From: Candidatus Woesearchaeota archaeon
GTDB lineage: Archaea > Nanobdellota > Nanobdellia > Woesearchaeales > DSVV01
DNA length: 64,000 nt
Assembly (NCBI GenBank): GCA_018657385.1
Contig: JABHXF010000034.1
Location: 8,081 to 72,080 of the forward strand
Direction: 5' to 3'
The notes under the pieces are model-generated. The model was given only the letters and a program-made list of their open reading frames with translations. It was not told where the DNA came from and did no database searches. This document shows positions 17,826-61,939 of this stretch, one piece after another. Within the stretch, counting starts at the first letter, position 1; every line of letters begins with the position of its first letter. Made by a program: the position numbers and the translations under genes.

Positions 17826-17862
17826 ATGTACTTATATATTAGGTACAAATGCATCGATTATA

Positions 17863-18534: not shown

Positions 18535-18543
18535 TTTAATTTG

Positions 18544-19287: not shown

Positions 19288-19344
19288 GTTATCACCAATG
19301 ATGTAAAAATCAAATTGATATAAAAAACTTATCTTATTTAACCA

Positions 19345-19512
19345 TATGTGGTAAGTTAGGTCTTGAGTTTGGGGTCATGAGTTATGAGTTGGTTGTGGGT
19401 AAGTCAGTTATGGGATTTGGTTATGAGTTAATTAGTTTTGAGAAAAATACAGCGATACTAATTACTTATTAACTGATAACCAACCCAAAACCCATAACTC
19501 ATTACTCAAGAC
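19345..19512. repeat. GT-rich/AC-rich imperfect palindromic element, copy 2
   Basis: The left arm GGTCTTGAGTTTGGGGTCATGAGTTATGAG... pairs with the right arm ...CTCATTACTCAAGACTTATC. The core ATTTGGTTATGAGTTAATTAGTTTTGAGAAAAAT is 34/35 identical to 37024-37058. Confidence 0.6.
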
Positions 19513-27954: not shown

Positions 27955-27995
27955 TTCATAACTATTTTCAGATTATTGTGTTTAGACTATTATGT

Positions 27996-29567
27996 TCAAA
28001 CAGGTAATGTAAAACTGATTGTTGTACCCTGATTTAACTTACTTTTTATGGAAATTTTCCCACCAAATGCCTCTAGTATTTTTTTTACAATTGGTAATCC
28101 TAACCCTGAACCACCTTTAGTTCTAACCATATGTTCTTCTGCTTGATAAAATTTATCAAAAACAGTATCAAGATCTTGTTTTTTAATACCTTTACCATTA
28201 TCCAAAATAGTAATTTCAATAAATTTCTCCTTTTTTTTAGTAGAATTAATAATTTTCTTTGCAGAGATTGTAATCATATCACCATTACCAATAAATTTAA
28301 TACTATTATCAATGATATGATTCAATACTTGTATTAATTTTTGCTTGTCTACTACAATAAGTGGAATGTTTTTAGGAATATTGATTTTAATCTTAATTCT
28401 TTGTTTTTTTGCTAATTCAATTGTATTACATTCAGTTAAACATTGTTTTAAGGAAACACTAGTTTTGTTTAATTTCATATCGTCAGATTCTAATTTGGAT
28501 ATATCTAACATGTTATCAATTAGTTCAACCAGTACATCTGATTGGTCAATAATAATTTTTAATGCCTTAGATTGCCTATAATTAATGTCTCCAAACTTTC
28601 CTGAATTTAATAAAGAAGTATATCCTTTGATATTTGTTAAAGGTGTTCTTAATTCATGACTAACAGTACTTAAAAATTCAGTTTTCATATTTTCAGTTCT
28701 TCTTTGCTTTGTTATATCCCTAATTATACAAACTGCCCCAGAAAAAACAAGATTGTTATTATTGTTATTCTTACTAGTACTAGTTGTAGTAGTGATAGTA
28801 GTTCTTGTACTATTATTATCTAAAACAGGAGAAACTATTGCAGTTATAATCTTGTTAAGAGGTTTTATTTCAAATTCCAGGCAATCATCTCTAAAATTAC
28901 ATTTTTTACTTGAGTTTTTTTTATTTTTTTCTAAGTTTATATTATTTATATTTGTGGTCAAAGTATCTGGATCAATATATAGATTATTCAAACCATATTT
29001 TTTTAATTGTAAAATATGTTTACCAATAGCTTTTGAAGCATTAATGTCAAATATATCCTCAGCTGATTTATTAAAAACAATTATTTTATTAGCACTATCT
29101 GTTACAATAACCCCATCACCCATTGATTCTATAATTAATTCTTTCTTTATTCTTTCTTTTGAAGCTATACCTTTAACTTTTTTACCATATCGTTTTTCTG
29201 CTTTTAATTTTGAAACCATTTTATTAAATGATTCTACTAATCTCCCAAATTCATCATTGCTTTGCTTATCTATTTTCTGACTAAGATCACCTTCAGTTAC
29301 TAGTTGTGTTCCAATAATTACCTTATCTAAAGGTTTAATTAACATATGAACAATAAACAATGAAATAAAAATAAGTAAAACAAAAGTTGCAATACCAATA
29401 GAGTAAAAGTTTTGAATAAACCCATCATATTTTAATGGAGTATTAATAACAACATTCCCTGTAACATCTACTATTGGTCTAGTTCCTAAAAATAAACCAA
29501 CAAGAATTATAGATGAAACTAATAAAAACATAACTAACAACATTATTTTATTCTTTACTGATACCAT
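27996..29567 (-). CDS. membrane sensor histidine kinase (2 TM, HAMP, PAS, HisKA, HATPase_c) with a T/N low-complexity insert
   Basis: VSHELRTPLTNIKGY, DNGKGI and GGSGLGL. TTITTTTSTSKNNNNNN lies in a linker. Confidence 0.85.
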   Translation of the reverse strand: MVSVKNKIMLLVMFLLVSSIILVGLFLGTRPIVDVTGNVVINTPLKYDGFIQNFYSIGIATFVLLIFISLFIVHMLIKPLDKVIIGTQLVTEGDLSQKIDKQSNDEFGRLVESFNKMVSKLKAEKRYGKKVKGIASKERIKKELIIESMGDGVIVTDSANKIIVFNKSAEDIFDINASKAIGKHILQLKKYGLNNLYIDPDTLTTNINNINLEKNKKNSSKKCNFRDDCLEFEIKPLNKIITAIVSPVLDNNSTRTTITTTTSTSKNNNNNNLVFSGAVCIIRDITKQRRTENMKTEFLSTVSHELRTPLTNIKGYTSLLNSGKFGDINYRQSKALKIIIDQSDVLVELIDNMLDISKLESDDMKLNKTSVSLKQCLTECNTIELAKKQRIKIKINIPKNIPLIVVDKQKLIQVLNHIIDNSIKFIGNGDMITISAKKIINSTKKKEKFIEITILDNGKGIKKQDLDTVFDKFYQAEEHMVRTKGGSGLGLPIVKKILEAFGGKISIKSKLNQGTTISFTLPV

Positions 29568-29614
29568 TTCAAATGTAACTCCCTTAAGGATTAAATGATA
29601 TTAACAGAGAGTAA

Positions 29615-30628
29615 TTAAGTTATTTTATCAAATACTTGATTGAAATCAAGATTTTTTTCTTGAATTTCTTTACCAGATAACATATTAACGTCTAGTTTTA
29701 ATTCTTTAAAGTTTGAATCAATATAAGGTAACATTTTTTCAAAGGCTACTTTAACTTCTTCATCTACACCTTTCATATCGCCAATTAAAACAAAATTATT
29801 ATTAATTGTATGACCTAAAAAACAATTTTGACCTAAAGTATTATTATTAATTAATCTCTGAAAGAGAACAAGTAATTCATTATGTTTCTTATAACCCTTT
29901 TCATCTGCAAACTTGCTTAAGCCATTTAACTTAAAATTATAAACATTAAAATATTTATTTTCAGCAATGTATTTATTCAACTCTTCTAGGATAAGATTTT
30001 TATCAGGTAATTTTGTGATTGGATGTTTACCAATTTGAGTTGAATGTTTCAGATTAAGATTAATTCTTGCTTCTAACTCAAGTGGATCAAATGGTTTTGT
30101 AATATAATCATCAGCCCCAACATCAATACCATCTATTTTATCTTTAATTTCTCCTTTTGCACTAAGTATAATAACATGAATATGTGAAGTTAATGGATTT
30201 TCTTTAAGAATTTTACAAACCTCATATCCACTCATACCAGGCATCATTAAATCTAAAACAAGAAGATCTACTTTGTTCTTTTTTAAAACTTCTAAAGCTT
30301 CATTTCCTGAATATGCTTCAAAAATATTAAATTTATCAGAAGCTAAACTTAATTTAATAAGATTTACAACATGTGGTTCATCATCTACAACTAAAATATT
30401 TGGTTTCTGTTGTTGTTCTGTTAGTTTCCATAATTTTGCCTGAGCAACTTCTTGTTGTGTAACTAAATTTTGTGCTTGTAATACTTCTAAATATTTAGAA
30501 ATAGTTAACCTATTATGTTGAATTTGTTTAGAAATCTCTGTAGATGATGCCCCAAACTCTGTAGTTTTTAAAAATTGTAATATTTTATCTTTAATATTAT
30601 TGTTATTATTGTTATTGATGTTAATCAC
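29615..30628 (-). CDS. response regulator with an N-terminal winged-HTH, a central REC and an uncharacterised C-terminal domain of about 130 aa
   Basis: A poly-N start is followed by the HTH FLKTTEFGASSTEISKQIQHNRLTISKYLEVL. The REC is ILVVDDEPHVVNLIK...DLLVLDLMMPGMSGYEV...GADDYITKPF. The C-terminal domain has no recognised motif. Confidence 0.75.
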   Translation of the reverse strand: MININNNNNNNIKDKILQFLKTTEFGASSTEISKQIQHNRLTISKYLEVLQAQNLVTQQEVAQAKLWKLTEQQQKPNILVVDDEPHVVNLIKLSLASDKFNIFEAYSGNEALEVLKKNKVDLLVLDLMMPGMSGYEVCKILKENPLTSHIHVIILSAKGEIKDKIDGIDVGADDYITKPFDPLELEARINLNLKHSTQIGKHPITKLPDKNLILEELNKYIAENKYFNVYNFKLNGLSKFADEKGYKKHNELLVLFQRLINNNTLGQNCFLGHTINNNFVLIGDMKGVDEEVKVAFEKMLPYIDSNFKELKLDVNMLSGKEIQEKNLDFNQVFDKIT

Positions 30629-31360: not shown

Positions 31361-32443
31361 TTAGAACTTATTAATAATCAATCTGCCCTTCTTAGCATGT
31401 ATAACTACTTCATTCTTTTCATCAAAATCAGTTAAATTAGTAATCATTTCAGGCAGAATTATTCTTTTACTCCTTATTGTTAGATTTGTAATTATTTCTT
31501 GAGGTGTTGCATTATCTGTATCAACACCACATTCCATTAAAATATCCTTAGTATTAACACTATCTTGCTTTTTCTTTACACGCTTAGAAGCTTCTTTTGC
31601 TAAAAATTTAGCAATCTTATCAGCAAGATCTACTTTTGTTGCTTTAGTAATTCCTTGTAAACCTGGACTTAAATTAAGCTCAATTACAACAGGACCTTTA
31701 ACACTCTGAAGAATATCAACACCACAAATATCACAATTTAAAGCTTGTGCTGCCCTTACTGCTAATTTTTTTGTATGTGTATCAAGTTCAATTGCTTCCC
31801 CAGTTCCACCAGCATGAATATTTGCTCTTTTTTCTTCTTTAGCTGCTTTTCTCTCCATTGCTGCAACAACCTTATCACCAACTACAAAAGCCCTAATATC
31901 AGTTCCACCTGTTTCTACATATTCTTGAATAATAAATGGCTGGTTTAAAGTTGTAAGAGCATCTAACATAGAACTTGCACTAGGATAACTATCAGCAAAC
32001 ATAACGCCTTTACCATGAGAACCCTCTGGAAATTTCATTATAATTGGATAATTAATGTTTTCTAGTAAATTTTTAGCTGCCTCAGTTGTAGGAGTTAAAT
32101 AAGTTTTAGGCATAGGAATACCAGCCTGTTGTAGCTTTAATTGAGTTAATAATTTATTATGACCAAGAGTAAAAGCACTTGAACTAATTGGAAGATAACA
32201 TTTTGAAGAATATGTAGCAGTTATTGCCCTTAAAATTTGGGCGTATCTATGAGATCCTTTTGCATAGATACAATCATATTCACCTAATGGTTTATTATCA
32301 TACAAAATCTCCATATCTTTCTTACCTAATTTAACCTCTAAAGCCCTTACATCAATAGCATCCACACTATCAAAATACTTTCTCATTGCCTCTAAAGTCC
32401 ATTGTGAACTTGTACTTCCTAAACTTATTAATGCTGCTTTCAT
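31361..32443 (-). CDS. RimK-family ATP-grasp ligase (alpha-L-glutamate ligase-like) with a C-terminal extension
   Basis: ATP-grasp layout with KGSHRYAQIL, ...GSHGKGV... and ...IELNLSPG. Confidence 0.7.
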   Translation of the reverse strand: MKAALISLGSTSSQWTLEAMRKYFDSVDAIDVRALEVKLGKKDMEILYDNKPLGEYDCIYAKGSHRYAQILRAITATYSSKCYLPISSSAFTLGHNKLLTQLKLQQAGIPMPKTYLTPTTEAAKNLLENINYPIIMKFPEGSHGKGVMFADSYPSASSMLDALTTLNQPFIIQEYVETGGTDIRAFVVGDKVVAAMERKAAKEEKRANIHAGGTGEAIELDTHTKKLAVRAAQALNCDICGVDILQSVKGPVVIELNLSPGLQGITKATKVDLADKIAKFLAKEASKRVKKKQDSVNTKDILMECGVDTDNATPQEIITNLTIRSKRIILPEMITNLTDFDEKNEVVIHAKKGRLIINKF

Positions 32444-32476
32444 TTTAATGTTATTTTTATGTTATTTTTATTAAAT

Positions 32477-32851
32477 TTAATCTATTTCATTATCTGCATT
32501 ACAAGTATCAATTAAAAATTTACCTTGCCTTAACAAATCCTGACCAATTAACATTTTGTATTTCATTTTTGTTCTATCTGCGATAGTAAATTGAGTTTTA
32601 AGTTTCTTCCCTGCAATTGTAACTGAACCTTCAACAATAGGCCTTAATGTTGCACCATGTGCACTTTTAACCATCTTTGTTTTTAAAACTGGACCTAATC
32701 TCAAAGAAGCAGCTAGCTTAACATCAATTGAACTTCTAGTTGCACCAGTATCAATTCTTGCAATAATTTGTTTATTAGTTGTTTTATTTCCTGATAAACT
32801 TACTTTTTCATATAAACCAATAATCTGATTATTTTTAATTGATTCTGACAT
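32477..32851 (-). CDS. retropepsin-like aspartic protease domain protein (RimK-associated, PF05618-like)
   Basis: The D-T-G-A active-site motif ARIDTGATRSSIDV is present. The gene sits immediately upstream of, and co-oriented with, the RimK gene. Confidence 0.6.
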   Translation of the reverse strand: MSESIKNNQIIGLYEKVSLSGNKTTNKQIIARIDTGATRSSIDVKLAASLRLGPVLKTKMVKSAHGATLRPIVEGSVTIAGKKLKTQFTIADRTKMKYKMLIGQDLLRQGKFLIDTCNADNEID

Positions 32852-33053: not shown

Positions 33054-34586
33054 ATGACAGATTATAGGAAAATTGCAAAAGAAGCACTATGGGTTTATTT
33101 ATTAACAATGTTAATAATTCCCAGTGGATTCTTAGTTAGAATATTATATGCACATAATCTAAGTATTATTGATTATGGTTTATTTTATGGATTATTTGCA
33201 TTTTTTGGTTTTTTTGGATTTGTTAGAGATTGGGGATTAAGTTCAGCAACATATTTCTATGCGAATAACTATATTATACATGGACAAAAAAATAAAATTA
33301 AAACATTATTTTTTCTTAATCATGGATTTAAAATCATATTATCTGCCCTAATTGGAGTAGGGATGTATTTATTTAGAGGAATAATCACATCAGGAATTTT
33401 CAAGAATGAAGGCAATATAGGATATATATTTGATATTTTTATTATTTTTTGGGTTATAACAACAATATGCAAATCTAATTACATCTTTTTTAATATATTT
33501 CAAGAACAAAGAATTTCTAAATTTCTTGAATTTTTAAATTGGTTTTTAATAATAATCCTATCATTAATTGGGTTCCAACTTTATGAGGCATACAAAGTAC
33601 CAGTAGTAGCATATTTAATTGCAATGGTTGTTGTATGTGTATTATCCATGTTAATATTTTCAATCAAACATAATGATTTATTTAAAAATGATTTTTACAA
33701 GGGTTCAGATTTAGGAAAAGAAGTTTTAAAGTATGCAAGTGCTGTTGTCATAGGTGGTTTTTCTACTATGGTATTAGCACACATTGATTTATTTCTGATC
33801 CAATTAATGATTGGTGCTGAAAAAGTAGCATATTATTCATCTGGATTTGCTCTAGCAAGTTTATTGATGATGATTGTAACACCATTAACAATAATTATTC
33901 AACCATTATTTTCAAAAATTTGGCATCAGAACAACAAAGAAGAATTATCAAAATTAATTAGTTTTATCCTGAATAATATATTAATATTTATTCTGCCATT
34001 TTCTTTATTTTGTTTCACATTTGCAGTCCAAATAATAACATTAGTATATGGTTCAAATTTTATTGAATCTGTAATCATATTAAAATTATTTAGTTTTTCA
34101 TTTATTATCAAAGTAATTAATAGTATATTATTCTTAGTATTATGGTCAATTGGAAAACCAAAACAAAGTAGTAAAATATTAATTATTGCAGGTGTATTAA
34201 ATGTAACATTAGATGTATTATTGATTAGTGTAATGGGTAATGTTGGGGCAGTAATTGCTACTAGTTTCTGTTATTTGCTAATGATGGTTCTTTGTCTAAG
34301 AGAAATACTAAAAGAAATAGATATCAAATTCAATATCAGTGAAATTACAAAAATTTTATTATCCTCGCTTGCTTTTTTAATTATTGCATTTACAATAAAA
34401 GGTAAAATAATCATATTTGATGTAGGCATAGATAAAATTAATTTCCTATTAAATGGTGGAATAGTATTTGGAATAGCATTAATTGTTTATACAATATGTT
34501 TATTATTATTAGGAGTAATTACTAAGGAGAAAATTGAAATTGTTAGAAGTCTATTTAACTTAAGATTTAAGAAGAAAAATCGATAA
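33054..34586 (+). CDS. polysaccharide biosynthesis protein, Wzx-like flippase (MOP superfamily, 12-14 TM)
   Basis: Uniformly hydrophobic multi-TM architecture of 510 aa. Confidence 0.65.
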   Translation: MTDYRKIAKEALWVYLLTMLIIPSGFLVRILYAHNLSIIDYGLFYGLFAFFGFFGFVRDWGLSSATYFYANNYIIHGQKNKIKTLFFLNHGFKIILSALIGVGMYLFRGIITSGIFKNEGNIGYIFDIFIIFWVITTICKSNYIFFNIFQEQRISKFLEFLNWFLIIILSLIGFQLYEAYKVPVVAYLIAMVVVCVLSMLIFSIKHNDLFKNDFYKGSDLGKEVLKYASAVVIGGFSTMVLAHIDLFLIQLMIGAEKVAYYSSGFALASLLMMIVTPLTIIIQPLFSKIWHQNNKEELSKLISFILNNILIFILPFSLFCFTFAVQIITLVYGSNFIESVIILKLFSFSFIIKVINSILFLVLWSIGKPKQSSKILIIAGVLNVTLDVLLISVMGNVGAVIATSFCYLLMMVLCLREILKEIDIKFNISEITKILLSSLAFLIIAFTIKGKIIIFDVGIDKINFLLNGGIVFGIALIVYTICLLLLGVITKEKIEIVRSLFNLRFKKKNR

Positions 34587-36894: not shown

Positions 36895-36960
36895 ATTGTA
36901 ATTATGAGATCTGTATTTTTTATTAAATGTCCTTTATAAGAGAGATTTTATGTAATTAAT

Positions 36961-37115
36961 AAGGTTTTGAGTTATGGGTAATGTGTTTTGAGTTGGTTCT
37001 GTGTAAATCAGTTGTGAGATTTGGTTATGAGTTAATTAGTTTTTAGAAAAATGTAGTAATACTCATAACCACTTACTGATAACCAACTCAAGACATAAAA
37101 CTCATTACTCATAAT
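36961..37115. repeat. GT-rich/AC-rich imperfect palindromic element, copy 3
   Basis: The left arm GGTTTTGAGTTATGGGTAATGTGTTTTGAGTTGGTT pairs with the right arm AACCAACTCAAGACATAAAACTCATTACTCATA. It shares a 34/35 core with copy 2. Confidence 0.6.
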
Positions 37116-37247
37116 TATAACATATAATATAAACTACTCTATATATAAATATATATCTTCCATAAAGCTTATAAATAAAACTAGGTTCTTTCAGTATTGA
37201 AATGGGTGTGTAAAAGATAGAAAAGCAGGGATACCCATAAAAAGAAA

Positions 37248-37922
37248 ATGAATAAATTAGAAACATTTGAACAATATTTTGCAACTAGTACAGGAAGCAT
37301 AAACATACCTAGTATGATATTAGCTTTATTTCTAGCAGCATTACTTTCTTACATTTTAGGTAAATTATACATTAAATATGGCAGCTGTTTATCAAATAGA
37401 GCAAAGTTTGCAGGAAATTTCATGATTCTTACAACTACTACAACATTAATCATAAGTGTTGTTAAATCTTCATTAGCATTATCTTTAGGTTTAGTAGGAG
37501 CATTATCTATTATAAGGTTTAGAGCAGCGATTAAAGAACCTGAAGAATTAGCATTTTTATTCCTAACTATTGCAATTGGACTTGGTTTTGGTGCTAATCA
37601 ATTTTTAATTACAATCATAGCATTTGTAATAATATCATTTTTAATAATATTAAGACACTGGTCAAAGAAGAAAAGTGTTGAAAATAATATGAATTTAACA
37701 ATTAATAGTAAAAAATCAGATAAAGTTACATTAAAGAATATATCATTTGTACTAAATAGATATTGCACATCTGTAAATCTAAAAAGGTTTGAGAGCTCAA
37801 ATGAAATTATTGAAGCATCTTTCTTTGTAACATTTGATTCATTTAATGATCTTGAAAGAGTTAAAAAAGATTTAGAAGATCTATCTAAAACAATTAATAT
37901 TAATTATCTGGAAAGAGAGTAA
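37248..37922 (+). CDS. DUF4956-family membrane protein
   Basis: Characteristic TM pattern ...LGLVGALSIIRFRAAIKEPEELAFLFLTIAIGLGFGANQF.... The family typically co-occurs with VTC and CotH domains. Confidence 0.6.
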   Translation: MNKLETFEQYFATSTGSINIPSMILALFLAALLSYILGKLYIKYGSCLSNRAKFAGNFMILTTTTTLIISVVKSSLALSLGLVGALSIIRFRAAIKEPEELAFLFLTIAIGLGFGANQFLITIIAFVIISFLIILRHWSKKKSVENNMNLTINSKKSDKVTLKNISFVLNRYCTSVNLKRFESSNEIIEASFFVTFDSFNDLERVKKDLEDLSKTININYLERE

Positions 37923-37995
37923 TTGAAGAATTCCCTTAGACTTTTAAGAGAGATCATAAAAACCCAAATAGTTGATGATATAGGGTATCCAAAAA

Positions 37996-40737
37996 ATGAT
38001 AATTAAAAAGAAAAAATATAAAAAAAACATATTTTCTTCTATTCTCAAAAAGATATTTAATAAGAAATCTTTAATTATATTAGGAATATTTTTACTAATT
38101 GCATGTTTCTTAGTTGGACTATTATCAGGTTTAGCAGTAAGTGGATTTTTTGGAAGCTTAGACAATCCATCTCAAAATGCAATTGGAATTATTGATGCAA
38201 TTGGAATTAAAACTATTGCAAGACCATTAATTCCAAAAATGCAAGATGTGATTTATACAATCAATGGAATTAAAGAAGAGAATATTAAGATCCCATTAAA
38301 CATTATCAAGGGATTCTTTTCCAAACCTGAGAAAATCTACATTGATATTGCTTTTGAGGATTATCAAAAAATAGCATACAAAAGAGAGAAAAGTTTAGCA
38401 TTGAGAGTTCATTTAACTGAAGATGATGATTATGTTCCAGGAACAATTAGATATAATGATGAAACATACAAAGTAAAACTAAGATTAAAAGGAGATTTAT
38501 TAGATCATTTAAGATCAGATAAATGGTCTTTTAGAATTAAAATAAGAAATAGCAAAACCTTATTTGGTATGGAAACGTTCTCTATTCAAACACCTAAAGC
38601 AAGAAATTGGCTAAATGAAATTGTTTATCAACATGTTTTGAAAAAAGAAGGTATAATTACACCAAGAACTAAATTTTTAGAAGTAGTAATAAATGGAAAA
38701 AATAAAGGCATATATGAGTTAGAAGAACATTTTGATAAAATCATGATTGAAAACAATTTGTTAAGAGAAGGACCAATAATTAAATTTAATGAAAATCTAA
38801 GATATATTAACAAAGTCTATTCTCCAAGTATTGGTTATAACAATAATGCAGGTGTTTATCTTTTTACAGATATAGATTCATTACAAACAAATAAAATAAT
38901 GAAAAATCCAGTATTATTTAATCAATTTGATGTTGGAAAAAATAGAATAGAATTATTTAGACAAGGAAAATTAAAAACTAGTCAAGTTTTTGATAGTGAA
39001 AAGTTAGCTAAATATTTTGCATTATCTGAGTTAACAGGGGCACAACATGGTTTATTCTTCCATAATCATAGGTTTTATTATAATCCTGTTACAACTAAGT
39101 TAGAACCAACTGGATTTGATGGTGATGCAGGAAAAGAAATTGTAGACCTCATATTTGTAGATGATCATTTATGGATAAGAGAATTATTTAAAGATGTTGA
39201 TTTTTTTGAAGCTTATATTAAAGAGCTTGAAAAGATATCTAATAAAGAATATGTTGATAATATATTTTCAGAATTAAAAGAAGAAAATAAAAGAAATATA
39301 AACATACTTCACAAAGATAATCCATTTTATCATTTCTCTAAAGATGTTTATTACAATAACATGGAAATAATTAACAAATATCTTAATCCAGGAAAAGCAT
39401 TGCAGGCTTATTTTTATCAGCAAAAAACTATTATAAAAGAAAGAACAGAAATTAAGGAAAGTGTTATTGTAAAAGTAAGTAATGTTCAATCAATGCCTTT
39501 AGTTATAGAAAATGTAATGCTTGAAGTAGAAAATCAGAAAATTGAATTACAAACTGAAGAAAAACAGATTCTTTTACCCTATTATCCTGAAGAATTCCCA
39601 GAATACAAAAAATTAGAATTTATTATACCTAAAGAATTTGAATGGAAAGATGAATATGCAAAAAATATGAGTATTAACTTTAAAATTTTAGGTACAGAAA
39701 AATTAAGAAGTGAAAAAATAATTCCTTGGTCTAATTTAGATGATAATTTTATAGAGGATGATATTATACTTAAAGAAAGTAATATTGAAGAATTTGAATT
39801 TATAGAGATTATAGAAAATGATGATGATAATAAAAAAATTCAAATTAAAAATGGAAAATGGGACATTAATAAGGACATAATTATCCCTAAAGGATACACA
39901 GTATTTTGTAATGAAGGAACTACAATTAACCTAATAAATAATGCAATTATGTTATCATACTCACCAATAATATTTATTGGATCAGAAGAAAAGCCAATAA
40001 AAATAATATCATCAGATAGTACTGGAGAAGGATTAGTTCTATTAAATACAAATAATGAAAAAAATATAAATGACAAAGAAAGCAAATCTGAGTTAAGACA
40101 TGTAATATTTGATAATTTAGGTACACCTTCAAAAAAAACATGGCAATTAACAGGTGCAGTTACATTTTATGAGTCTGATGTTGAAATTGAAAACTGTAAA
40201 TTTCTAAATGCAAGATCTGAAGATGGATTAAACATTATAAGATCAAAGTTTGAAATGAAAAATACAATAATTGAAAATACATTTTCAGATGCTTTTGATA
40301 TAGACTTTGGAGAGGGAATTTTAGATGGTATTTTCTTTATGAATTGTGGAAATGATTGTTTAGATACATCCGGAAGTAATATTGAAGGGAATAACATAAA
40401 TGTAGTAAATGTTGGAGATAAGGGAATTAGTATTGGAGAAAAAAGTAAAGCTGTTCTTACAAATGTAAATGTAAGAAATGCATTTATTGGTATAGCAAGT
40501 AAAGACCAATCTGAATTGATAATCAATAAGCTATCTGTTGCAGACTCAAAATATGGGATAGGAATATATCAGAAAAAAGCAGAGTATGGTTCAAGCAAAA
40601 TTAGAATTGAAAATTATGAATTGGAAAATAATAACCAAAGACACATAACTGAAGAAGGTTCTGTATTGATTTTAGATGATGAGATTATAAATGGTCAAGA
40701 AAAAAAGGTTTATGATATATTATATGGAGTTGAATGA
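37996..40737 (+). CDS. CotH-family atypical protein kinase domain protein (913 aa). It has an N-terminal membrane anchor, a central CotH domain and a C-terminal right-handed beta-helix repeat region.
   Basis: CotH core WSFRIKIRNSKTLFGMETFSIQTPKARNWLNEIVYQHVLKKEGIITPRTKFLEVVINGKNKGIYELEEHFD. The C-terminus has parallel beta-helix-like repeats (NCGNDCLDTSGSNIEGNNINVVNVGDKGISIGEKSKA...). Confidence 0.6.
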   Translation: MIIKKKKYKKNIFSSILKKIFNKKSLIILGIFLLIACFLVGLLSGLAVSGFFGSLDNPSQNAIGIIDAIGIKTIARPLIPKMQDVIYTINGIKEENIKIPLNIIKGFFSKPEKIYIDIAFEDYQKIAYKREKSLALRVHLTEDDDYVPGTIRYNDETYKVKLRLKGDLLDHLRSDKWSFRIKIRNSKTLFGMETFSIQTPKARNWLNEIVYQHVLKKEGIITPRTKFLEVVINGKNKGIYELEEHFDKIMIENNLLREGPIIKFNENLRYINKVYSPSIGYNNNAGVYLFTDIDSLQTNKIMKNPVLFNQFDVGKNRIELFRQGKLKTSQVFDSEKLAKYFALSELTGAQHGLFFHNHRFYYNPVTTKLEPTGFDGDAGKEIVDLIFVDDHLWIRELFKDVDFFEAYIKELEKISNKEYVDNIFSELKEENKRNINILHKDNPFYHFSKDVYYNNMEIINKYLNPGKALQAYFYQQKTIIKERTEIKESVIVKVSNVQSMPLVIENVMLEVENQKIELQTEEKQILLPYYPEEFPEYKKLEFIIPKEFEWKDEYAKNMSINFKILGTEKLRSEKIIPWSNLDDNFIEDDIILKESNIEEFEFIEIIENDDDNKKIQIKNGKWDINKDIIIPKGYTVFCNEGTTINLINNAIMLSYSPIIFIGSEEKPIKIISSDSTGEGLVLLNTNNEKNINDKESKSELRHVIFDNLGTPSKKTWQLTGAVTFYESDVEIENCKFLNARSEDGLNIIRSKFEMKNTIIENTFSDAFDIDFGEGILDGIFFMNCGNDCLDTSGSNIEGNNINVVNVGDKGISIGEKSKAVLTNVNVRNAFIGIASKDQSELIINKLSVADSKYGIGIYQKKAEYGSSKIRIENYELENNNQRHITEEGSVLILDDEIINGQEKKVYDILYGVE

Positions 40738-40768
40738 TTAGTAAAATCAATAAAAGAATTAAATTAAA

Positions 40769-41470
40769 ATGATACACAAATTCCTAAATCCTAAAAAATT
40801 CAGATATGAAAGAAAGTTTCTTGTAGAAGAACTTGGAAAGAAAGAAGCATTATTTGTTATTAAAGAAAATCCAGCAATGTTCTCAGAAATATTTCACGAG
40901 CGAAGAATAAACAATATTTATTTTGATTCAAGTAACATGGAAAGTTATCATGATAATGTAATGGGAAATAGTCAAAGAGTAAAAATAAGAATTAGATGGT
41001 ATAATGATTTATTTGGTCATATTAAAAAACCAGTTTTAGAAATCAAAATTAGAAATAATGAATTAGGCTCAAAACAATCATATCAATTAAAACCATTTAT
41101 TCTTGGAAACAATACATCAAAAGATTGGTTAATAAAAGAAGTTATTTGTAAGTCCAGTCTTCCAAGATGGTTAGTAGAACACATAAAATCTCTTAAATTT
41201 GCTTTGTTAAATAGTTATACAAGAAGATATTTTAGATCTGCTGATAAAAAATATAGAATAACAATAGATTATGATCTAAAATTTAATGAAATATTTCAGA
41301 ATAACAATAAATTTGTTAAAACAATCAACCATAAAGAGTATATAATATTAGAACTGAAATATGAAAGAGATGCCGATGAAGGTGCAGAGAATATTACTAA
41401 CAGTTTCCCATTTAGATTAACTAAGAGTTCAAAATTTGTATCAGGAATAGATTCTATTAGTGAAGCATAA
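40769..41470 (+). CDS. VTC-domain (CYTH-like triphosphate tunnel, polyphosphate-polymerase-type) protein
   Basis: RYERKFLVEE..., IYFDSSNMESYHD, RVKIRIRWYND and LEIKIRNN, the alternating basic beta-strand pattern of the VTC/CYTH family. Confidence 0.55.
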   Translation: MIHKFLNPKKFRYERKFLVEELGKKEALFVIKENPAMFSEIFHERRINNIYFDSSNMESYHDNVMGNSQRVKIRIRWYNDLFGHIKKPVLEIKIRNNELGSKQSYQLKPFILGNNTSKDWLIKEVICKSSLPRWLVEHIKSLKFALLNSYTRRYFRSADKKYRITIDYDLKFNEIFQNNNKFVKTINHKEYIILELKYERDADEGAENITNSFPFRLTKSSKFVSGIDSISEA

Positions 41471-41538
41471 TTAAGTTAAATCCAACCAATAATATATGAA
41501 GATATATTAAAAAATATATATTAACATTTATCAAGAAA

Positions 41539-42327
41539 ATGAAATTAAAAATAAGCAAAAACATTTACCAGAGCATATACAAATATTTAGATTATATTAG
41601 ATATTATGGTATTTTTAATTCCATTACACGTCTACCAAATTATTTGTTAGAAAAAGCATGGAATGTTTTAATTGATTACCCGGCAAGTAAGCTAATAGGA
41701 TCAAAACAAACTAAGAAACTATATTTCAATTTATTTAAACTGAGATGTGAATATGGTCTTTTTTTAGGAAAAAAGAGATTATGGATTGGAAATTATACAA
41801 TGCAAAGGGTCTATAAAATAGTTTATGTTGATATTAAAAAAATAAAATATAGAACTGATCAAAAAGGATCACCATTTTTTATTGAATCTGGAAAATGGGA
41901 TAAAAATAAAAGAAAAATACCATTACATCCAACAATAAAACAATTATTTGTTGATCATTATGATTATAAAGAAACACAACAATATAAAAATATGAAAAAA
42001 GCAGTATTAAAGGGTGAATATAACAAAAGTTATTGGTGCAGAACATTAAAAGAAGTAGATAAATATTTTGAAATATTAATCTCAGCATATGATAGTATTA
42101 AGAAAAAAGGATATAAAACACAACTACAACTAAAAAAAATCAACAAAAAAGGAAAATATAATAGACTAGATGAGATTAGAGTTTCTATTGATAGAAATGG
42201 AAATTATCTTATGGAAAACTCAGGAAATCATAGATTAGGAATTGTAAAATTATTAAAGATTAAAAAAGTACAAGTAGTAATAATAAGAATCCATTATTTA
42301 TGGTGGAAGAAGATTAATAAGATTTAA
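41539..42327 (+). CDS. hypothetical protein (262 aa, very basic)
   Basis: ORF only. It lies between the VTC gene and the TagF-like gene. Confidence 0.4.
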   Translation: MKLKISKNIYQSIYKYLDYIRYYGIFNSITRLPNYLLEKAWNVLIDYPASKLIGSKQTKKLYFNLFKLRCEYGLFLGKKRLWIGNYTMQRVYKIVYVDIKKIKYRTDQKGSPFFIESGKWDKNKRKIPLHPTIKQLFVDHYDYKETQQYKNMKKAVLKGEYNKSYWCRTLKEVDKYFEILISAYDSIKKKGYKTQLQLKKINKKGKYNRLDEIRVSIDRNGNYLMENSGNHRLGIVKLLKIKKVQVVIIRIHYLWWKKINKI

Positions 42328-42385
42328 AAAGATTAAATATGGGATTTAGAAATGATTACGTTTTCAACACAATTGGTTAAATAAA

Positions 42386-43798
42386 ATGGTTAAATATGGT
42401 GCAAGATTAAATAAAGATGATTTAAGATATTTAAAAAATCGTTTAGATGAATTAAACCAAGATATATTAACATACAAAAACATAAATTTGGTAGAAAAGT
42501 GTGAATTAGAGTTAATTTATAGTAATCAATCTAAATTTTTAATTTCTAGTGCATTTAATAAATTAAAACATATAAGAATGAGTTTAAGATCAATTATTTC
42601 AAAACCAAAAAAAGGTAATCAAAATAAAATTTTATTTTTATTGTACACTAACAGCCATATTAACAATAGCAGATCTATAATAAATGAGTTAGGTGAAAAA
42701 GCATTGGTTGTAAAAAAAGATGGATTTACTAATCATGTTGCAAAAAAACTTAAAAGAAATAATATAGAATTTAATGATATTGAAGGATATGATAAATCTA
42801 AAAAAAACATATCAACAGCTGAAAAATCATTAGACAAAGCATATAATGAATTAGTAAAAGAAGATAAGATTGAAAAACCAATGCTAAAATATATGTTTAA
42901 ATCCTATTTCCCTGAGGTGATTAAATATATTGAATTAATAAACAACATGTTAGAATTTGAAAAACCAAAATTATTAGTTGTAATGAATGAAATTACAACA
43001 TTAGGAAACATAGCTGTTTCTATTGCAAAAGAAAAAAAGATTCAAACATTATGTATCCAACATGGAGCAATAGCAAATAATCCAGGTAGTTTTGTACCTG
43101 TTTCTGTTGATAAAGTAGCAGTTTGGGGAGAATATTCAAAAAAAGTAATGATGGAACATAATACACCTGAAGAAAAAATAGTTATAACAGGTGCCCCACA
43201 ATTTGATATATTAAAAGATTATAATAAGGGAATAACACCTAAAATTGCAAAAGAAATTGGTTTAGATATAACAAAAAAATATGTTTTAATTACAACACAA
43301 AATTATCCATTTATGGAAGATGTACTAAGATCAGTATGTAATACTGTAAAATTAATTCCAGAATTACAATTAGTAATTAAAACACATCCATCTGAGTATT
43401 TTGCTGATAAATATGTCAAAATTGCTCAAAAATCAGGAATTAAAAGCATAGTTACAAGTAAATACCTGTATCCTTTATTAAAAAGCTGTAGTGCAATGAT
43501 AACTGTTTCTTCAACTACTGGTATGGAAGCATTGATGATGAAAAAGCCAGTAATTACTGTTAATTATACTGGATCTGAAGATCCTATGCCCTATGCAGAA
43601 AATGGGGCAGCAATTGGTGTATATAAAGAAGAAGAATTGTTACCAGCTATAAAAGCAGTAATAAATAATGATGATAATAATGATAAAATAAATGAAATAA
43701 TTAAGAAATCTAAAAATTTCCTATATGATAGATGCCATGTAATTGATGGAAATGCATCTCAAAGAATTGTTGAATTAATCCACAAAATAAGTAATTAA
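42386..43798 (+). CDS. CDP-glycerol glycerophosphotransferase (TagB/TagF)-like polyol-phosphate transferase
   Basis: GT-B-like C-terminal half with KKYVLITTQNYPF, ...VIKTHPSEY... and ...SAMITVSSTTGMEALMMKKPVIT, which resemble the TagF motifs. This is a family-level call only. Confidence 0.4.
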   Translation: MVKYGARLNKDDLRYLKNRLDELNQDILTYKNINLVEKCELELIYSNQSKFLISSAFNKLKHIRMSLRSIISKPKKGNQNKILFLLYTNSHINNSRSIINELGEKALVVKKDGFTNHVAKKLKRNNIEFNDIEGYDKSKKNISTAEKSLDKAYNELVKEDKIEKPMLKYMFKSYFPEVIKYIELINNMLEFEKPKLLVVMNEITTLGNIAVSIAKEKKIQTLCIQHGAIANNPGSFVPVSVDKVAVWGEYSKKVMMEHNTPEEKIVITGAPQFDILKDYNKGITPKIAKEIGLDITKKYVLITTQNYPFMEDVLRSVCNTVKLIPELQLVIKTHPSEYFADKYVKIAQKSGIKSIVTSKYLYPLLKSCSAMITVSSTTGMEALMMKKPVITVNYTGSEDPMPYAENGAAIGVYKEEELLPAIKAVINNDDNNDKINEIIKKSKNFLYDRCHVIDGNASQRIVELIHKISN

Positions 43799-44701: not shown

Positions 44702-47401
<2,700 letters not shown>

Positions 47402-47460
47402 TTTGAAATTTAAAAAATTATTGAAAAAGAATAATAATAACAATAATAAACATACAAAAA

Positions 47461-49547
<2,087 letters not shown>

Positions 49548-49551
<4 letters not shown>

Positions 49552-51101
49552 TTATAGGTAAATCATGCATGTATATTAATTATAATAACAAAAAAACAAA
49601 AATGAAACAAGAACAAAGAAACAGATTATTAGAAGAAAGAAATAATTTAGATACTGATTTTGTTAGTGAAAAGAGTAAAATAATCAACATTAAAATTCTT
49701 GAGTTGAATGAGTTAAATAATGCCAGAAATATTGGAATATATTATCCTAAAGATTGTGAAGTTGATACTAAAGAATTAATTAAAAAGTTAATTGAAAATG
49801 GAAAAAATGTGTTTTTGCCAAAAGTTATAAAAAATAATGATAAAGACATAGATAATGATGAAATGGAATTCAAAGAAATAAAAAACTTTGAAGAACTTGT
49901 TTATGGAGAGTATGGTATAAAAGAACCTAGTGAAAATTCGAGAAAAATAAATGCTGAAGAAATAGATGTATTAATTATGCCTTGTGTTGGAGTTGACACA
50001 AAAGGCAATAGAATTGGTAGAGGAAAAGGGTATTATGACAAATATCTTGAAAGTGTAAGCAAAGCAAAGAAGATTTGTGTTGCATATGATTTTCAAATTA
50101 TAGATAATGAAATAGAAAAAGAAGCACATGATAAAAAAGTAGATATAATAATTACAGAAAGTAAAATAATTACAACTGATGAAATAATTAATTCAAACGC
50201 ATTTAAATTATTAGATGGAAAAAAGTTAGCAGATCAAATTAATGAAAAAGTTAAGCAAGAAATTAATTCATATTCTAATAAAGAATTAATAAAAGTTCCT
50301 AAGCTAGTTGCTATAATTGTAGGAGAAGATCCTGCATCAAAATTATATGTTAGAATAAAAGGAGAAAAATGTAAAGAAGTTGGAATTAATTTTGAAAAAT
50401 TGAGTTATTCTGAAGAGATGGATGAAAATGAATTAATAAATGAAATAGAAAAACTAAACAATGAAAAAGAAGTAACTGGAATAATGATACAATTGCCTTT
50501 ACCAAAACATCTAGACAAAGAAAAAATAATTAATAAAATTAGTGTTAAAAAAGATATTGATGGCCTTACTCAAGAAAACAGAATATTACTTTCTCAAGGA
50601 GATGAAAGCTTAGCATGCTGTGCCCCAAAAGGGATTATGAGGTTATTAGATGAAAATAATATTGAGCTTAAAGGAAAAAATATAGTTGTTCTAGGAAAAG
50701 GATATCTAGTTGGTTATCCATTTATATTAATGTTAAAAAATAGAAATCTTGATTTTACAGTATGTGATTGTAATACGCAAAACATACAAGAATTTACTAG
50801 AAAGGCAGATATATTAATAACAGCAACAGGAAATGCTCACTTAATTAAATCAAATGACATAAAAGAAGGTGTAGTGATTATTGATGCAGGATGTGCAAAA
50901 GTAGGAGGATGTGTTGTTGGAGATGTAGATTTTGAAGATGTGAAAAATAAATCATCTTACATAACACCTATAATTGGTGGTGTTGGACCTGTAACAGTTG
51001 CTATATTGATGGAAAACATATTAACTGCACATAAAAATTCATTCATAAGAGAAACAAAAGAAATCAATGAAACAAATCAGAGGAATGAAGAAGATGACTA
51101 A
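49548..51101 (+). CDS. fusion of 5-formyltetrahydrofolate cyclo-ligase (MTHFS) and bifunctional methylene-THF dehydrogenase/methenyl-THF cyclohydrolase (FolD)
   Basis: MTHFS part IDVLIMPCVGVDTKGNRIGRGKGYYDKYL. FolD part LVAIIVGEDPASKLYVRIKGEKCKEVGI...GIMIQLPLPKHLDKEKIINKISVKKDIDG...PIIGGVGPVTVAILMEN. It overlaps the upstream gene by 4 nt. Confidence 0.75.
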
Positions 51102-51801
51102 AAAGATAGTAATTTATGGATCTGGTGGATCAGGAAGAGAAGTTAAGATGTTTATTGATCAAATTAATGAACATTATAATAATGAAGATTACAAAAACAA
51201 TCAAAATAATGAAAATAAGAAGGTTTTTGAGATAATTGGATTTATTGATGATAATCCTGAAAAGAAAGGTACAATTGTAGTAGATAATCTAAAAATCATA
51301 GGAGATTTTAATTATTTATTAAATTATAATGATCAATTAAATGTAGTTATTGCAATAGGAGAGATGACAATTAGAAAAAGCATATTTGATAAGATAAAAC
51401 AAAATACAAAACTAAAGTTTCCAAATATAATTCATCCTAGTGTAATATATGAGAAAAAAACAAGCAACATAGGAAAAGGTAATATTATTTCATCTGGAGC
51501 TGTAATTAGCACTAATTTTTCATGTGGAGATTTTAATCATATTCATTTGAATGCAGCAATAGGACATGATTTTAGATGTGGAGACTATTGCAATTTGTTT
51601 CCTGGTATTAATATTGCTGGAATGGTTAAGATGCATGATTTTTGTGAAATTGGGTTAGGATCAAGCATTAGACAATGTATTGAAATTCCAACAAATGTCA
51701 GAGTTGCTGGCTGTTCATTCATAATGAGAAACCCAGAACCAAATTATAGTTATATTGGAGTACCAATTAGAAAATTTTTCAAACTTAAAGAAATCAAATA
51801 A
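51094..51801 (+). CDS. hexapeptide-repeat sugar N-/O-acetyltransferase (NeuD/PglD/PseH-like)
   Basis: N-terminal Rossmann-like IVIYGSGGSGREV and C-terminal left-handed beta-helix repeats. The start is likely ATG 51094 (MTKKIVIYG), overlapping the FolD stop by 8 nt. Confidence 0.65.
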   Translation: MTKKIVIYGSGGSGREVKMFIDQINEHYNNEDYKNNQNNENKKVFEIIGFIDDNPEKKGTIVVDNLKIIGDFNYLLNYNDQLNVVIAIGEMTIRKSIFDKIKQNTKLKFPNIIHPSVIYEKKTSNIGKGNIISSGAVISTNFSCGDFNHIHLNAAIGHDFRCGDYCNLFPGINIAGMVKMHDFCEIGLGSSIRQCIEIPTNVRVAGCSFIMRNPEPNYSYIGVPIRKFFKLKEIK

Positions 51802-51880
51802 TAATAATAATAATAATAATTTAAAAAAATTAAAAAAACAAGATGAATTAATAATATAATAACACAAATGAGGCAAAAAT

Positions 51881-52231
51881 ATGAACCTAGAAATTGGAAC
51901 TGATATAGAAGAAATAACAAGATTCAGAGAAAAGCCTTATGATAAGAATAAAGGATTTTATGAAAAAGTATTCACTGAAAATGAAATTTTATATTGTATG
52001 GAAAAAGCAGACCCATATCAACATTTTGCAGTGAGGTTTTGTGCTAAAGAAGCTGTAATAAAAGCATTACAAAATAAAAAGGTTTCATTTAATGAAATTG
52101 AAGTTATTAATGAAGATAATATTCCTAAAATTAAAATTAATTTAGAGAATTTTAATGAGATGGATATTAAAGTATCATTATCACATACAAAAAATTATGC
52201 TGTTGCATATGTTATTGTAGTTAAAAATTAA
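51881..52231 (+). CDS. acpS: holo-[acyl-carrier-protein] synthase (4'-phosphopantetheinyl transferase, AcpS type)
   Basis: IGTDIEEITRF...FTENEILYC...RFCAKEAVIKAL. Confidence 0.75.
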   Translation: MNLEIGTDIEEITRFREKPYDKNKGFYEKVFTENEILYCMEKADPYQHFAVRFCAKEAVIKALQNKKVSFNEIEVINEDNIPKIKINLENFNEMDIKVSLSHTKNYAVAYVIVVKN

Positions 52232-52246
52232 GAATAAGGTGAAAAA

Positions 52247-52498
52247 ATGAATGAAGAAGAAGTAAAAAACGAAATAACAAACATATTCAAAGAAACATTT
52301 CCAGAACTAAAAGAAAAAGAGCTTGAATTAGATAAACATCAGAATGATTTTGAAAACTGGGATTCATTTGCACATATGGAAATTGTTGGAAAAGTTGAAG
52401 AAAAATTTAAAGTTAGCTTAGAGATGGATGAAGTAATTAGCTTAGAAACACCACGAAAATTTATTGAAATTATTGTTAAGAAGACTAGTGGAAGTTAA
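52247..52498 (+). CDS. acyl carrier protein-like (83 aa)
   Basis: The phosphopantetheine-attachment Ser lies in NWDSFAHMEIV (DS motif). It is a helical acidic protein. An AAGGTG RBS is present. Confidence 0.6.
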   Translation: MNEEEVKNEITNIFKETFPELKEKELELDKHQNDFENWDSFAHMEIVGKVEEKFKVSLEMDEVISLETPRKFIEIIVKKTSGS

Positions 52499-52562
52499 TG
52501 ATTAGACAAAAGACCAGTAAAAATTAAAATTTATAATAAAACAAGCAGAGGAGGAAATAAAG

Positions 52563-55338: not shown

Positions 55339-55405
55339 AAAGAAATGAAAAAATAGAATAATTCAAAAGAAAAAATTGAAAATAAAAAGAGTGTAGATAA
55401 TAAAA

Positions 55406-57894: not shown

Positions 57895-58023
57895 ACTTTA
57901 TTCAAAAAGAAAAATAAGACAAAACAAAATTAAAAAACAAACAATAGATCAAATAAAATTCAATCATGAAAAAAATGAATTAGATCAAGAAAAAGAAACA
58001 TAAATTGAAGAGAGGGAAAAAAC

Positions 58024-59175: not shown

Positions 59176-59188
59176 GAGAGCAAAAATA

Positions 59189-60898: not shown

Positions 60899-60967
60899 AT
60901 TTAAAGAGTATAAAAAATAGATTAAATATACAATTAAAATAATTAAAAGCTAGAGAGGTAAAATAAA

Positions 60968-61927: not shown

Positions 61928-61939
61928 AAGAAATAAACT

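Follow-up and report, generated by a model that had tools for sequence, protein, structure and literature searches.

We analysed a 64,000-nucleotide stretch of DNA, referred to here as the window, from contig JABHXF010000034.1 of a Candidatus Woesearchaeota archaeon. Within it, three adjacent genes encode a DUF4956 membrane protein, a 913-amino-acid (aa) protein that joins a CotH-like kinase fold to a beta-helix, and a stand-alone VTC (triphosphate-tunnel) protein. The conserved unit is this gene order, DUF4956 > CotH > VTC, which recurs in 56 of 80 related loci, beyond what chance would give. The triad probably modifies the cell-surface sugar coat with phosphate. A more specific reading, to which we give a probability of about 0.4, is a trans-membrane relay in which phosphate derived from polyphosphate (polyP) would be delivered by the three proteins to a surface glycan.

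Extracellular phosphorylation is hard to explain in prokaryotes because there is no ATP outside the cell. The triad offers a candidate answer: a Vtc4-type domain inside, a kinase-fold protein outside and a small membrane protein between them, found in hundreds of species of both prokaryotic domains. VTC-type polyP synthesis is usually treated as eukaryotic, and the triad supplies a prokaryotic context for it with a conserved catalytic centre. The interest of these genes lies with the family more than with the single locus described here.

A gene order conserved in archaea and bacteria

The survey took one genome per species, scanned with the long CotH-like protein; the best 80 of 571 loci were kept with 10-kb flanks, and their open reading frames (ORFs) were searched with iterated hidden Markov models (HMMs) built from the window proteins. 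A DUF4956 gene was found in 72 of these loci and a VTC gene in 65. In 56 loci the three genes lie on one strand in the order DUF4956 > CotH > VTC, mostly abutting or overlapping, and most of the exceptions are truncated contigs. Of the best 80 loci, those with sufficient flank carry the full triad in 15/15 archaeal and 29/35 bacterial cases. The pairwise-identity matrices of the three proteins correlate (Spearman rho 0.64-0.70, a value reached by 0 of 500 permutations), which fits transfer of the three genes as a single block. A preliminary description of the window, made from its sequence, had called the triad recurrent, and indeed the same three genes return in the same order.

At least 543 homologues of the 913-aa protein (about 820-940 aa long, 37-63% identical over their full length) span Nanoarchaeota, Methanogenium, KSB1, Thermotogota, Chloroflexota, Omnitrophota and other groups. 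Twenty-one of the best 80 loci are archaeal, from Woesearchaeota, Pacearchaeota, Nanohalarchaeota, Methanosarcina, Methanolobus and Methanogenium marinum DSM 15558. The view that the association is essentially undescribed in archaea agrees with full-text literature searches on DUF4956 and on CotH kinase in archaea, which turned up no description of it; by automatic annotation, however, it is common there, cultured methanogens included. Its presence in cultured Methanosarcina (strains Mfa9 and 2.H.T.1A.6) and Methanogenium marinum makes the triad testable, and members of Methanosarcina are genetically tractable. The lifestyle of DPANN archaea depends on cell-surface contact, and the triad would mark a conserved surface-modification function in these organisms.

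Loosely recurrent neighbours of the triad in the 80 loci are NAD-dependent epimerases (16 loci), GT2 and GT4 glycosyltransferases (14 and 13), flippases (9) and Wzy-type proteins (6), with a cytidylyltransferase-PEP mutase in five, mainly in Woesearchaeota. A calcineurin-like metallophosphoesterase is encoded in 12 of the 80, often as an insertion that separates CotH from VTC, examples being Methanolobus, Methanogenium and a Thermotogota metagenome-assembled genome (MAG); the Methanolobus protein has hydrophobic segments at its N- and C-terminus. This enzyme may be an optional fourth component of the triad. Its gene was located at 12630-13751 in survey locus L016 and at 12644-13729 in L019, as well as in L010, L015, L034, L036 and L050. 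A further location is 1879-2982 in L090, and a Hymenobacter plasmid likewise has a metallophosphoesterase gene next to a CotH gene that stands alone. Two full copies of the triad stand side by side, inverted or in tandem, in L009 (Nanoarchaeota single-amplified genome AM-311-K23, 9321-19275) and L045 (12718-19736); these duplicated triads carry divergent CotH paralogues with catalytic-loop motifs unlike those of the main family. Long ORFs in L057 and L074, considered as possible VTC/DUF4956/CotH fusions, were found to carry DUF4956 only and are probably over-extended reading frames.

The three proteins and their predicted places at the membrane

The first protein of the triad (Table 1) matches DUF4956 at 60.3 bits (Pfam PF16316, cut-off 30.6), and an identical NCBI sequence is named DUF4956 domain-containing protein. 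Its AlphaFold2 model (predicted local distance difference test (pLDDT) 80) contains five transmembrane (TM) helices at residues 20-44, 51-72, 75-93, 98-115 and 119-140, after which a K-rich stop-transfer sequence leads into an ACT-like domain. Loop charges predict that the N-terminus lies outside and the C-terminus, with the ACT-like domain, inside. The TM core, VKSSLALSLGLVGALSIxRFRAAIKEPEEL, is nearly all invariant in bacteria and archaea, from Planctomycetota to Methanosarcina, and the mean column identity of the protein (59-60%) is above that of the CotH-like and VTC proteins. The architecture of five TM helices and a cytoplasmic ACT-like domain is shared with the MgtC/YhiD/SapB family. 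The score against that family is only 17.4 bits (Pfam PF02308, cut-off 31.4), and the TM core forms a separate, far more conserved family; the DUF4956 protein is therefore MgtC-like in architecture only.

The second protein opens with a cytoplasmic tail of 24 residues that holds 10 K/R and no D/E, followed by one strong TM helix, an arrangement common to 116 of 120 homologues. By the positive-inside rule, some 860 of its residues are predicted to lie outside the cell. In the AlphaFold2 model (mean pLDDT 88, predicted template modelling score (pTM) 0.70), a long helical stalk leads to a kinase-like domain, which a beta-sandwich connects to the beta-helix. When this model was compared with the PDB by Foldseek, CotH of Bacillus cereus (5JD9/5JDA) came out on top (E 6e-11, target TM-score 0.71-0.72), followed by the beta-helix proteins GH87, AlgE4 epimerase, GH28, phage tailspikes and depolymerases, and NosD. 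The Pfam CotH match covers residues 163-419 and is weak, at 34.8 bits (PF08757, gathering cut-off 23.8) against 140.8 bits for the CotH protein of a Pseudobutyrivibrio triad. The 913-aa sequence alone matched nothing in the PDB; a profile from an alignment was needed, and a profile of 42 CotH-like sequences matched 5jd9 at E 1.3e-4. PF13229 and PF12708 are recorded for its homologues. A CotH fold with a C-terminal beta-helix, as originally proposed, is thus supported by structure prediction, and the fold and the Pfam match together rule out a generic beta-helix glycosidase that lacks a CotH core.

The further label of an atypical kinase stands for the fold but becomes doubtful at the active site. 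Three aligners place the B. cereus motif NFDGFVHN opposite QHGLFFHN in the 913-aa protein, which reads QHGxxxHN across the family. Depending on gap placement, the column of the catalytic-loop Asp falls on Gly352 or on His351; the latter is invariant (42/42) and its codon lies at 39046-39048. The QHGxxxHN loop has no conserved acidic residue, and the Asp equivalent to D228 of Bacillus subtilis CotH is absent from 42/42 family members; canonical CotH proteins and the Hymenobacter CotH retain the catalytic-loop Asp in a MAFFT alignment. B. subtilis CotH phosphorylates coat proteins, and its D228Q variant is inactive (PMC7821199). The counterparts of B. subtilis D228 and D251 in B. cereus were assigned by the 23-residue spacing of the two mutated Asp residues. 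Other pocket residues are kept: Asn357 (conserved in at least 90%) aligns to the catalytic-loop Asn of B. cereus, the N-lobe Lys K176 is retained, and Asp375 (also at least 90%) aligns to the first or second Asp of WDYD depending on the aligner, its equivalence to D251 being thus gap-dependent. With an invariant His-Gly standing where characterised CotH kinases have their catalytic-loop Asp, kinase activity is not to be assumed.

Further along the same protein, the beta-helix carries an invariant row of residues (D743, D765, D768, D770, N786, D787, D790, D808, K809, E815, K836, D837, K860 and K861). In a weak profile match, the row partly aligns with the NTD/DD motifs of the GH28 endopolygalacturonase 1k5c, the second Asp being a Lys, K809. 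We read this row as a putative groove that would bind or process an anionic polymer.

The third protein matches the VTC domain at 97.8 bits over profile positions 2-233 of 235 (Pfam PF09359, cut-off 23), and with it all three proposed domain assignments score above their gathering cut-offs. On its own it gave marginal matches in the PDB, and a profile from an alignment of 33 sequences was needed to retrieve the Vtc2, Vtc4 and Vtc3 structures, at E 1.4e-7 to 8e-4. Residues E14, K16, R74, R76, K93, Y150, R152, R163, E195, K197, S221 and K222 are invariant in the 33 orthologues. Eight of them align with residues of Vtc4 (Table 1) that coordinate the triphosphate and whose mutation lowers cellular polyP (cryo-EM VTC study, bioRxiv 10.1101/2023.01.27.525886). 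Among the eight is the equivalent of K458, the sole triphosphate-binding residue that differs in the inactive paralogues, where it is Ile in Vtc2 and Leu in Vtc3 (bioRxiv 10.1101/2023.01.27.525886). Since the aligned Vtc4 ligands are kept, K458 included, the archaeal protein appears to have an active, Vtc4-type centre and is predicted to be polymerase-competent, in agreement with the catalytic type first assigned to it. It consists of the VTC domain only, with no SPX domain and no TM domain or TM-like segment.

Taken together, the topology predictions put the VTC protein and the ACT-like domain inside and the CotH-like domain outside, which fits an extracellular phospho-modification. The extracellular phospho-polymer of the preliminary description is a reasonable hypothesis on these grounds; its surface polyP is something that we infer.

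Table 1. Genes of the block, domains of the DUF4956 and CotH-like proteins, and residues of the VTC protein aligned with yeast Vtc4 (positions in the window)
Feature	Position	Strand	Basis or motif
DUF4956 membrane protein, 224 aa	37248-37922	+	Pfam PF16316, E 2.6e-16
Five TM helices of the DUF4956 protein, aa 20-140	37305-37667	+	AlphaFold2 model
C-terminal ACT-like beta-alpha-beta-beta-alpha-beta domain, aa 146-222	37683-37913	+	AlphaFold2 model
CotH-like/beta-helix protein, 913 aa, predicted type-II membrane-anchored, extracellular	37996-40737	+	Pfam CotH E 1.6e-8; AlphaFold2; Foldseek
Signal-anchor TM helix, aa 25-50	38068-38145	+	Hydropathy, charge count
CotH-like kinase-fold domain, aa ~110-465	38323-39390	+	Profile alignment to 5jd9, hhalign, MAFFT, invariant columns
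Beta-sandwich linker domain, aa ~469-575, no family assigned	39400-39720	+	AlphaFold2 secondary structure
Right-handed parallel beta-helix, aa ~600-900	39793-40695	+	Foldseek, profile match, invariant columns
VTC (triphosphate-tunnel) protein, 233 aa, stand-alone, predicted cytoplasmic, Vtc4 polymerase type	40769-41470	+	Pfam PF09359, E 9.5e-28
K16, aligned with Vtc4 K200			TTKYW
R74/R76, aligned with Vtc4 R264/R266			HRLRWYG
K93, aligned with Vtc4 K281			ERK
Y150/R152, aligned with Vtc4 Y359/R361			FYNR
S221/K222, aligned with Vtc4 S457/K458			FSKF
Basic protein of unnamed family, 262 aa, lineage-specific neighbour	41539-42327	+	No Pfam match
GT-B-fold transferase, 470 aa, loosely TagF-like, lineage-specific neighbour	42386-43798	+	Several Pfam GT-B families

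A possible phosphate relay and its alternatives

In the proposed relay, the soluble VTC protein would make polyP, or a short activated phosphate chain, from nucleoside triphosphate at the inner face of the membrane. The DUF4956 protein, whose five TM helices have a very highly conserved polar and basic core, would dock this polymerase and pass or present its product across the membrane, a step analogous to, not homologous with, the yeast VTC channel, and the cytoplasmic ACT-like domain may gate the transfer in response to a small ligand. On the outside, the 913-aa protein, attached by its one N-terminal helix, would hold the surface glycan in its beta-helix groove, while the CotH-like domain would move phosphate from the exported donor to the glycan or a glycoprotein, perhaps through the invariant His351 as a base or phospho-carrier, there being no ATP outside the cell. 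A eukaryotic precedent is VTC itself, in which the synthesis of polyP in the cytosol is coupled to its passage through the membrane (PMC9911596). The relay draws on the domain identities, the fold, the positive-inside topology, the aligned VTC catalytic residues, synteny, co-inheritance and the glycan-locus context; from these we infer each of its catalytic steps, namely polyP synthesis, export through DUF4956 and use by the CotH-like domain. That the CotH-like domain keeps Lys, Asn and Asp where conserved residues of CotH align also speaks for it.

Several points weigh against this relay. To our knowledge, no kinase-fold enzyme uses polyP as a donor. A literature search for prokaryotic VTC polymerases returned none, and no experiment shows polyP made by a prokaryotic VTC-domain protein. 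The TM part of DUF4956 matched no solved structure or channel, nor the TM domain of yeast VTC, and the protein that it resembles in architecture, MgtC, is regarded as a regulator and not as a transporter. The CotH-like domain, without the Asp whose substitution (D228Q) abolishes B. subtilis CotH activity, could be inactive. In the VTC protein, Vtc4 E426 was matched to the invariant E195 by pattern only (strand ILELKY, E-x-K), as the HMMER alignment stopped short of this strand; R264A/R266A/E426N is the standard inactive mutant of yeast VTC (PMC9911596).

Genetic data from Streptococcus intermedius, where SIR_1594/1593/1592 form a homologous triad (mBio 2025, PMC12345266), bear on the relay in both directions. 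They offer it a precedent, in that loss of the DUF4956 or the CotH gene alters Pel levels and aggregation. Deletion of the DUF4956 gene raised Pel and deletion of the CotH gene lowered it, each halved aggregation in artificial sputum medium, and deletion of the VTC gene was without reported change in aggregation or Pel (PMC12345266). Opposite effects of the first two deletions on Pel, combined with none reported for the third, do not suit a simple linear pathway. These results fit neither the relay nor any of its rivals cleanly. They also correct the statement that the bacterial association is functionally uncharacterised, since it has already been published with knock-outs (PMC7112168, PMC12345266).

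A regulatory or sensor module is a doubtful contender. In such a module a dead CotH-like domain would serve as a glycan receptor, DUF4956 would transmit its state, and the VTC protein would make or hydrolyse a cytoplasmic phosphate signal, so that surface-polysaccharide synthesis would follow phosphate or energy status. The canonical catalytic Asp is indeed lost from the CotH-like domain, DUF4956 has an MgtC-like architecture with a ligand-binding ACT-type domain, and MgtC has been described as a regulator of phosphate metabolism (PMC12345266). The S. intermedius knock-outs, which shift the amount of Pel up or down and do not abolish it, point the same way, and regulation by phosphorylation was suggested by Whitfield et al. 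(PMC7112168). However, the invariant His, Asn, Asp and Lys of the CotH-like pocket and the Asp/Lys row of the beta-helix look like active sites, not decay; the aligned Vtc4-type polymerase residues are all retained; and the phosphoesterase that adjoins the triad in 12 loci suggests real extracellular phosphate chemistry.

Unlikely, in our estimation, is a bolder form of the relay, in which a DUF4956 oligomer would thread polyP outward and the CotH-like domain would be a His-retooled, ATP-independent phosphotransferase, possibly with a phospho-His, that (poly)phosphorylates surface glycans. If the triad did pair a prokaryotic VTC counterpart with an extracellular phosphotransferase, it would be the first polyP-driven phosphorylation system outside a cell and a likely origin, in evolution, of the VTC polymerase domain of eukaryotes.

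Still less probable are two independent functions that travel together, with the beta-helix acting outside as a glycan hydrolase, lyase or epimerase, and VTC and DUF4956 making or regulating intracellular polyP. The resemblance of the beta-helix to GH87, GH28, AlgE4 epimerase and phage depolymerases would suit this explanation, as would the alignment of its invariant Asp residues with the GH28 NTD/DD motifs and the proven glycoside hydrolase that adjoins pel-linked triads. But the second catalytic Asp of GH28 aligns to a Lys (K809), the long CotH subfamily nearly never occurs without its partners, and the fixed order, the overlapping start and stop codons and the co-inheritance across phyla and domains argue for one machine. 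A canonical ATP-dependent Ser/Thr protein kinase of the Bacillus CotH type, acting on S-layer or envelope proteins with VTC and DUF4956 as accessories, is very improbable: it has on its side the Pfam and 5JD9/5JDA fold matches and the coat-protein phosphorylation by B. subtilis CotH, and against it the predicted extracellular site without an ATP supply, the D228 equivalent missing from every aligned family member and the low Pfam score relative to the Firmicute triad CotH.

The surrounding locus and related systems

The five co-oriented ORFs at 37248-43798 all lie on the + strand, at exactly the coordinates first given for them. Gaps within this block measure 31-73 bp and gaps of about 350 bp bound it on either side, so the block fits a single transcription unit. 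Directly upstream of the DUF4956 gene, at 36950-37125, lies one of two intergenic copies of an imperfect palindromic element of about 160 nucleotides; the other is at 19340-19500, and the two are 85% identical. The element folds as a long hairpin (-58 kcal/mol, z = -7.8 against shuffles) and could be a repeat like miniature inverted-repeat transposable elements or repetitive extragenic palindromes, or a structured leader or terminator. An Rfam search of the whole window, the palindromic element included, gave no RNA family at gathering score.

The two genes that close the block follow the triad on the same strand but are not conserved with it. Iterated HMM searches found zero homologues of the 262-aa basic protein and the 470-aa GT-B enzyme in the 80 related loci, and both were rejected as components of the system; they are local glycan-pathway genes of the host lineage. 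At 59 K+R to 20 D+E (net +39), the 262-aa protein is strongly basic. Searches of Pfam, PDB and PADLOC, the first two also with a profile, gave no match for its family, which has 1303 representatives at E <= 1e-3, with W120, G229, H231, R232 and H252 invariant (motif GGxHRL). Some members are fused to GT4, methyltransferase or enolase-like domains, and these occasional fusions suggest a role in a glycan pathway; the GGxHR motif presumably recalls ParB/Srx domains. For the 470-aa protein, the name TagF-like is only loosely right: Glyphos_transf does score above its cut-off (31.3 bits, E 1.4e-7; cut-off 22.1), but it is not specific, and Epimerase_2 (48.4 bits, 8e-13) and Capsule_synth (34.3 bits, 2.3e-8) score higher, as do GT-B families for surface carbohydrate that are uncharacterised. 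NCBIfam GT-B matches of this protein are all below cut-off, including BFO_1060 and TIGR04396, and its best PDB match is the diacylglycerol glucosyltransferase 9wde (GT28, E 1e-4). PADLOC gave no match for any of the five block proteins, and a role of the block in anti-phage defence was rejected on this count.

Pfam matches on either side of the block confirm that the triad sits in a surface-glycan island with a flippase. A Wzx/MurJ-type flippase (33054-34586), a B12-binding radical SAM enzyme and a methyltransferase are encoded upstream; an Lrp/AsnC regulator and a long nonulosonic-acid/acyl-modification pathway are encoded downstream. This pathway (44702-63328) includes a triple fusion of CMP-sugar synthase, NeuB and PIG-L deacetylase, a formyltransferase fused to a NeuC-like epimerase, and FolD fused to 5-formyl-THF cyclo-ligase, together with PglD, a DegT aminotransferase, a phosphopantetheinyl transferase, a small carrier-sized ORF without a family, an AMP-ligase, Fe-ADH, LuxE and LuxC. 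Such a gene set suggests that a nonulosonic acid is formylated or acylated here and that one-carbon units come from a dedicated supply. Two trinucleotide arrays, (TAA)33 at 48027-48126 and (ATA)17 at 45486-45535, lie in coding regions, within the formyltransferase-epimerase and CMP-synthase/NeuB/PIG-L fusion genes, and would encode homopolymeric linkers. BLAST alignments break at the arrays, and the gene products vary in length (899-912 aa and 675-696 aa) between strains that are 99.7-99.9% identical.

The contig encodes the archaeal markers ribosomal protein L37ae, Pcc1, prefoldin beta, PTH2 and class I LysRS, and a Candidatus Woesearchaeota (DPANN) protein at NCBI matches its DUF4956 protein at 100% identity. 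It recurs at 99.7-99.9% identity in several marine metagenome assemblies, in contigs of up to 282 kb. A bacterial origin had been suspected from a long RelA/SpoT protein, HAMP/PAS/GAF histidine kinases and RimK; it was rejected because of the archaeal markers in the window and because the RelA and DUF4956 homologues are named Woesearchaeota or Nanoarchaeota. The long bifunctional RelA/SpoT (HD, RelA_SpoT, TGS and ACT domains; 14029-15927, - strand) has homologues at 55-78% identity in many Woesearchaeota/Nanoarchaeota MAGs, the named ones being Woesearchaeota, Nanoarchaeota or Nanobdellota, and is apparently a bacterial-type stringent-response enzyme established in DPANN. A bacterial-type two-component cluster (25579-30628, - strand) encodes a GAF-GAF-HisKA-HATPase kinase (791 aa), a HAMP-PAS-HisKA-HATPase kinase (523 aa) and a response regulator (337 aa), and is followed at 31361-32851 by a RimK-type ATP-grasp enzyme and a RimB-like aspartic protease. 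For a small DPANN genome, such a set of genes is unusual.

With Bacillus CotH (5JD9/5JDA), the 913-aa protein shares the atypical kinase fold and the N-lobe Lys, and by alignment it appears to keep the catalytic-loop Asn and one or more of the WDxD Asp residues. It differs in the His-Gly that replaces the catalytic Asp (B. subtilis D228) and in its fusion to a beta-sandwich and a beta-helix. Moreover, Bacillus CotH is located in the mother-cell cytoplasm, whereas the window protein is predicted to be membrane-anchored and extracellular, and the sporulation context is absent.

The eukaryotic VTC complex (Vtc4/Vtc3 or Vtc2/Vtc1) has the same tunnel domain, with all of the aligned Vtc4 triphosphate residues, K458 included. 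In both systems a catalytic domain that faces the cytoplasm is genetically tied to a small polytopic membrane protein, and the product would reach the non-cytoplasmic side of the membrane. Unlike the eukaryotic complex, the window triad has no SPX sensor, and its tunnel domain is not fused to a TM domain. DUF4956 is unrelated by Pfam to the Vtc1-type TM domain and gave no structural match; the triad has an ACT-like domain in the place of a regulatory module and an additional CotH-like partner, predicted to be extracellular.

The closest known system is the set of CotH, polyP-polymerase and DUF4956 accessory genes of Gram-positive pel operons, which adjoin pelDEADAFG in streptococci, clostridia and bifidobacteria (Whitfield et al. 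2020, PMC7112168). Genes for a VTC-domain protein, a CotH protein and an unnamed membrane protein also occur together in the necrotic-enteritis locus NELoc-2 of Clostridium perfringens (PMC2879425). Tblastn of the window VTC protein against plasmids gave no match, but B. cereus CotH as the query led to a Firmicute form on the Pseudobutyrivibrio plasmid pNP95, where GT2, CotH (593 aa, 140.8 bits), VTC, DUF4956 and GT4 genes follow one another in this order. Such relatives give the family some relevance to pathogens, since the pel-linked genes affect aggregation of S. intermedius and others lie in the C. perfringens locus.

The pel accessory genes and the window triad comprise the same three Pfam families, side by side in a locus for surface or extracellular polysaccharide; in both, CotH is predicted to lie outside the cell, and the pel-linked DUF4956 has likewise been described as an MgtC-like TM domain with an intracellular ACT domain. 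Their gene orders differ, CotH > VTC > DUF4956 in the pel form against DUF4956 > CotH > VTC in the window form. So do the CotH proteins: the pel form, of about 500-600 aa, has a signal peptide and an FN3 domain, whereas the window form, of about 900 aa, has a signal-anchor helix, a beta-sandwich and a beta-helix, a weaker Pfam match (34.8 against 140.8 bits) and His-Gly for the catalytic Asp. The window form also has an archaeal host. No pel genes and no DUF4832 hydrolase were present among the Pfam matches near the window triad. The authors of the S. intermedius study stated that synteny of the triad was not found outside pel loci (PMC12345266); contrary to this statement, it is widespread outside them. 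We conclude that the bacterial association was already known, and that what is new in the window form is its gene order, the architecture and active site of its CotH-like protein, the absence of pel genes and the archaeal host.

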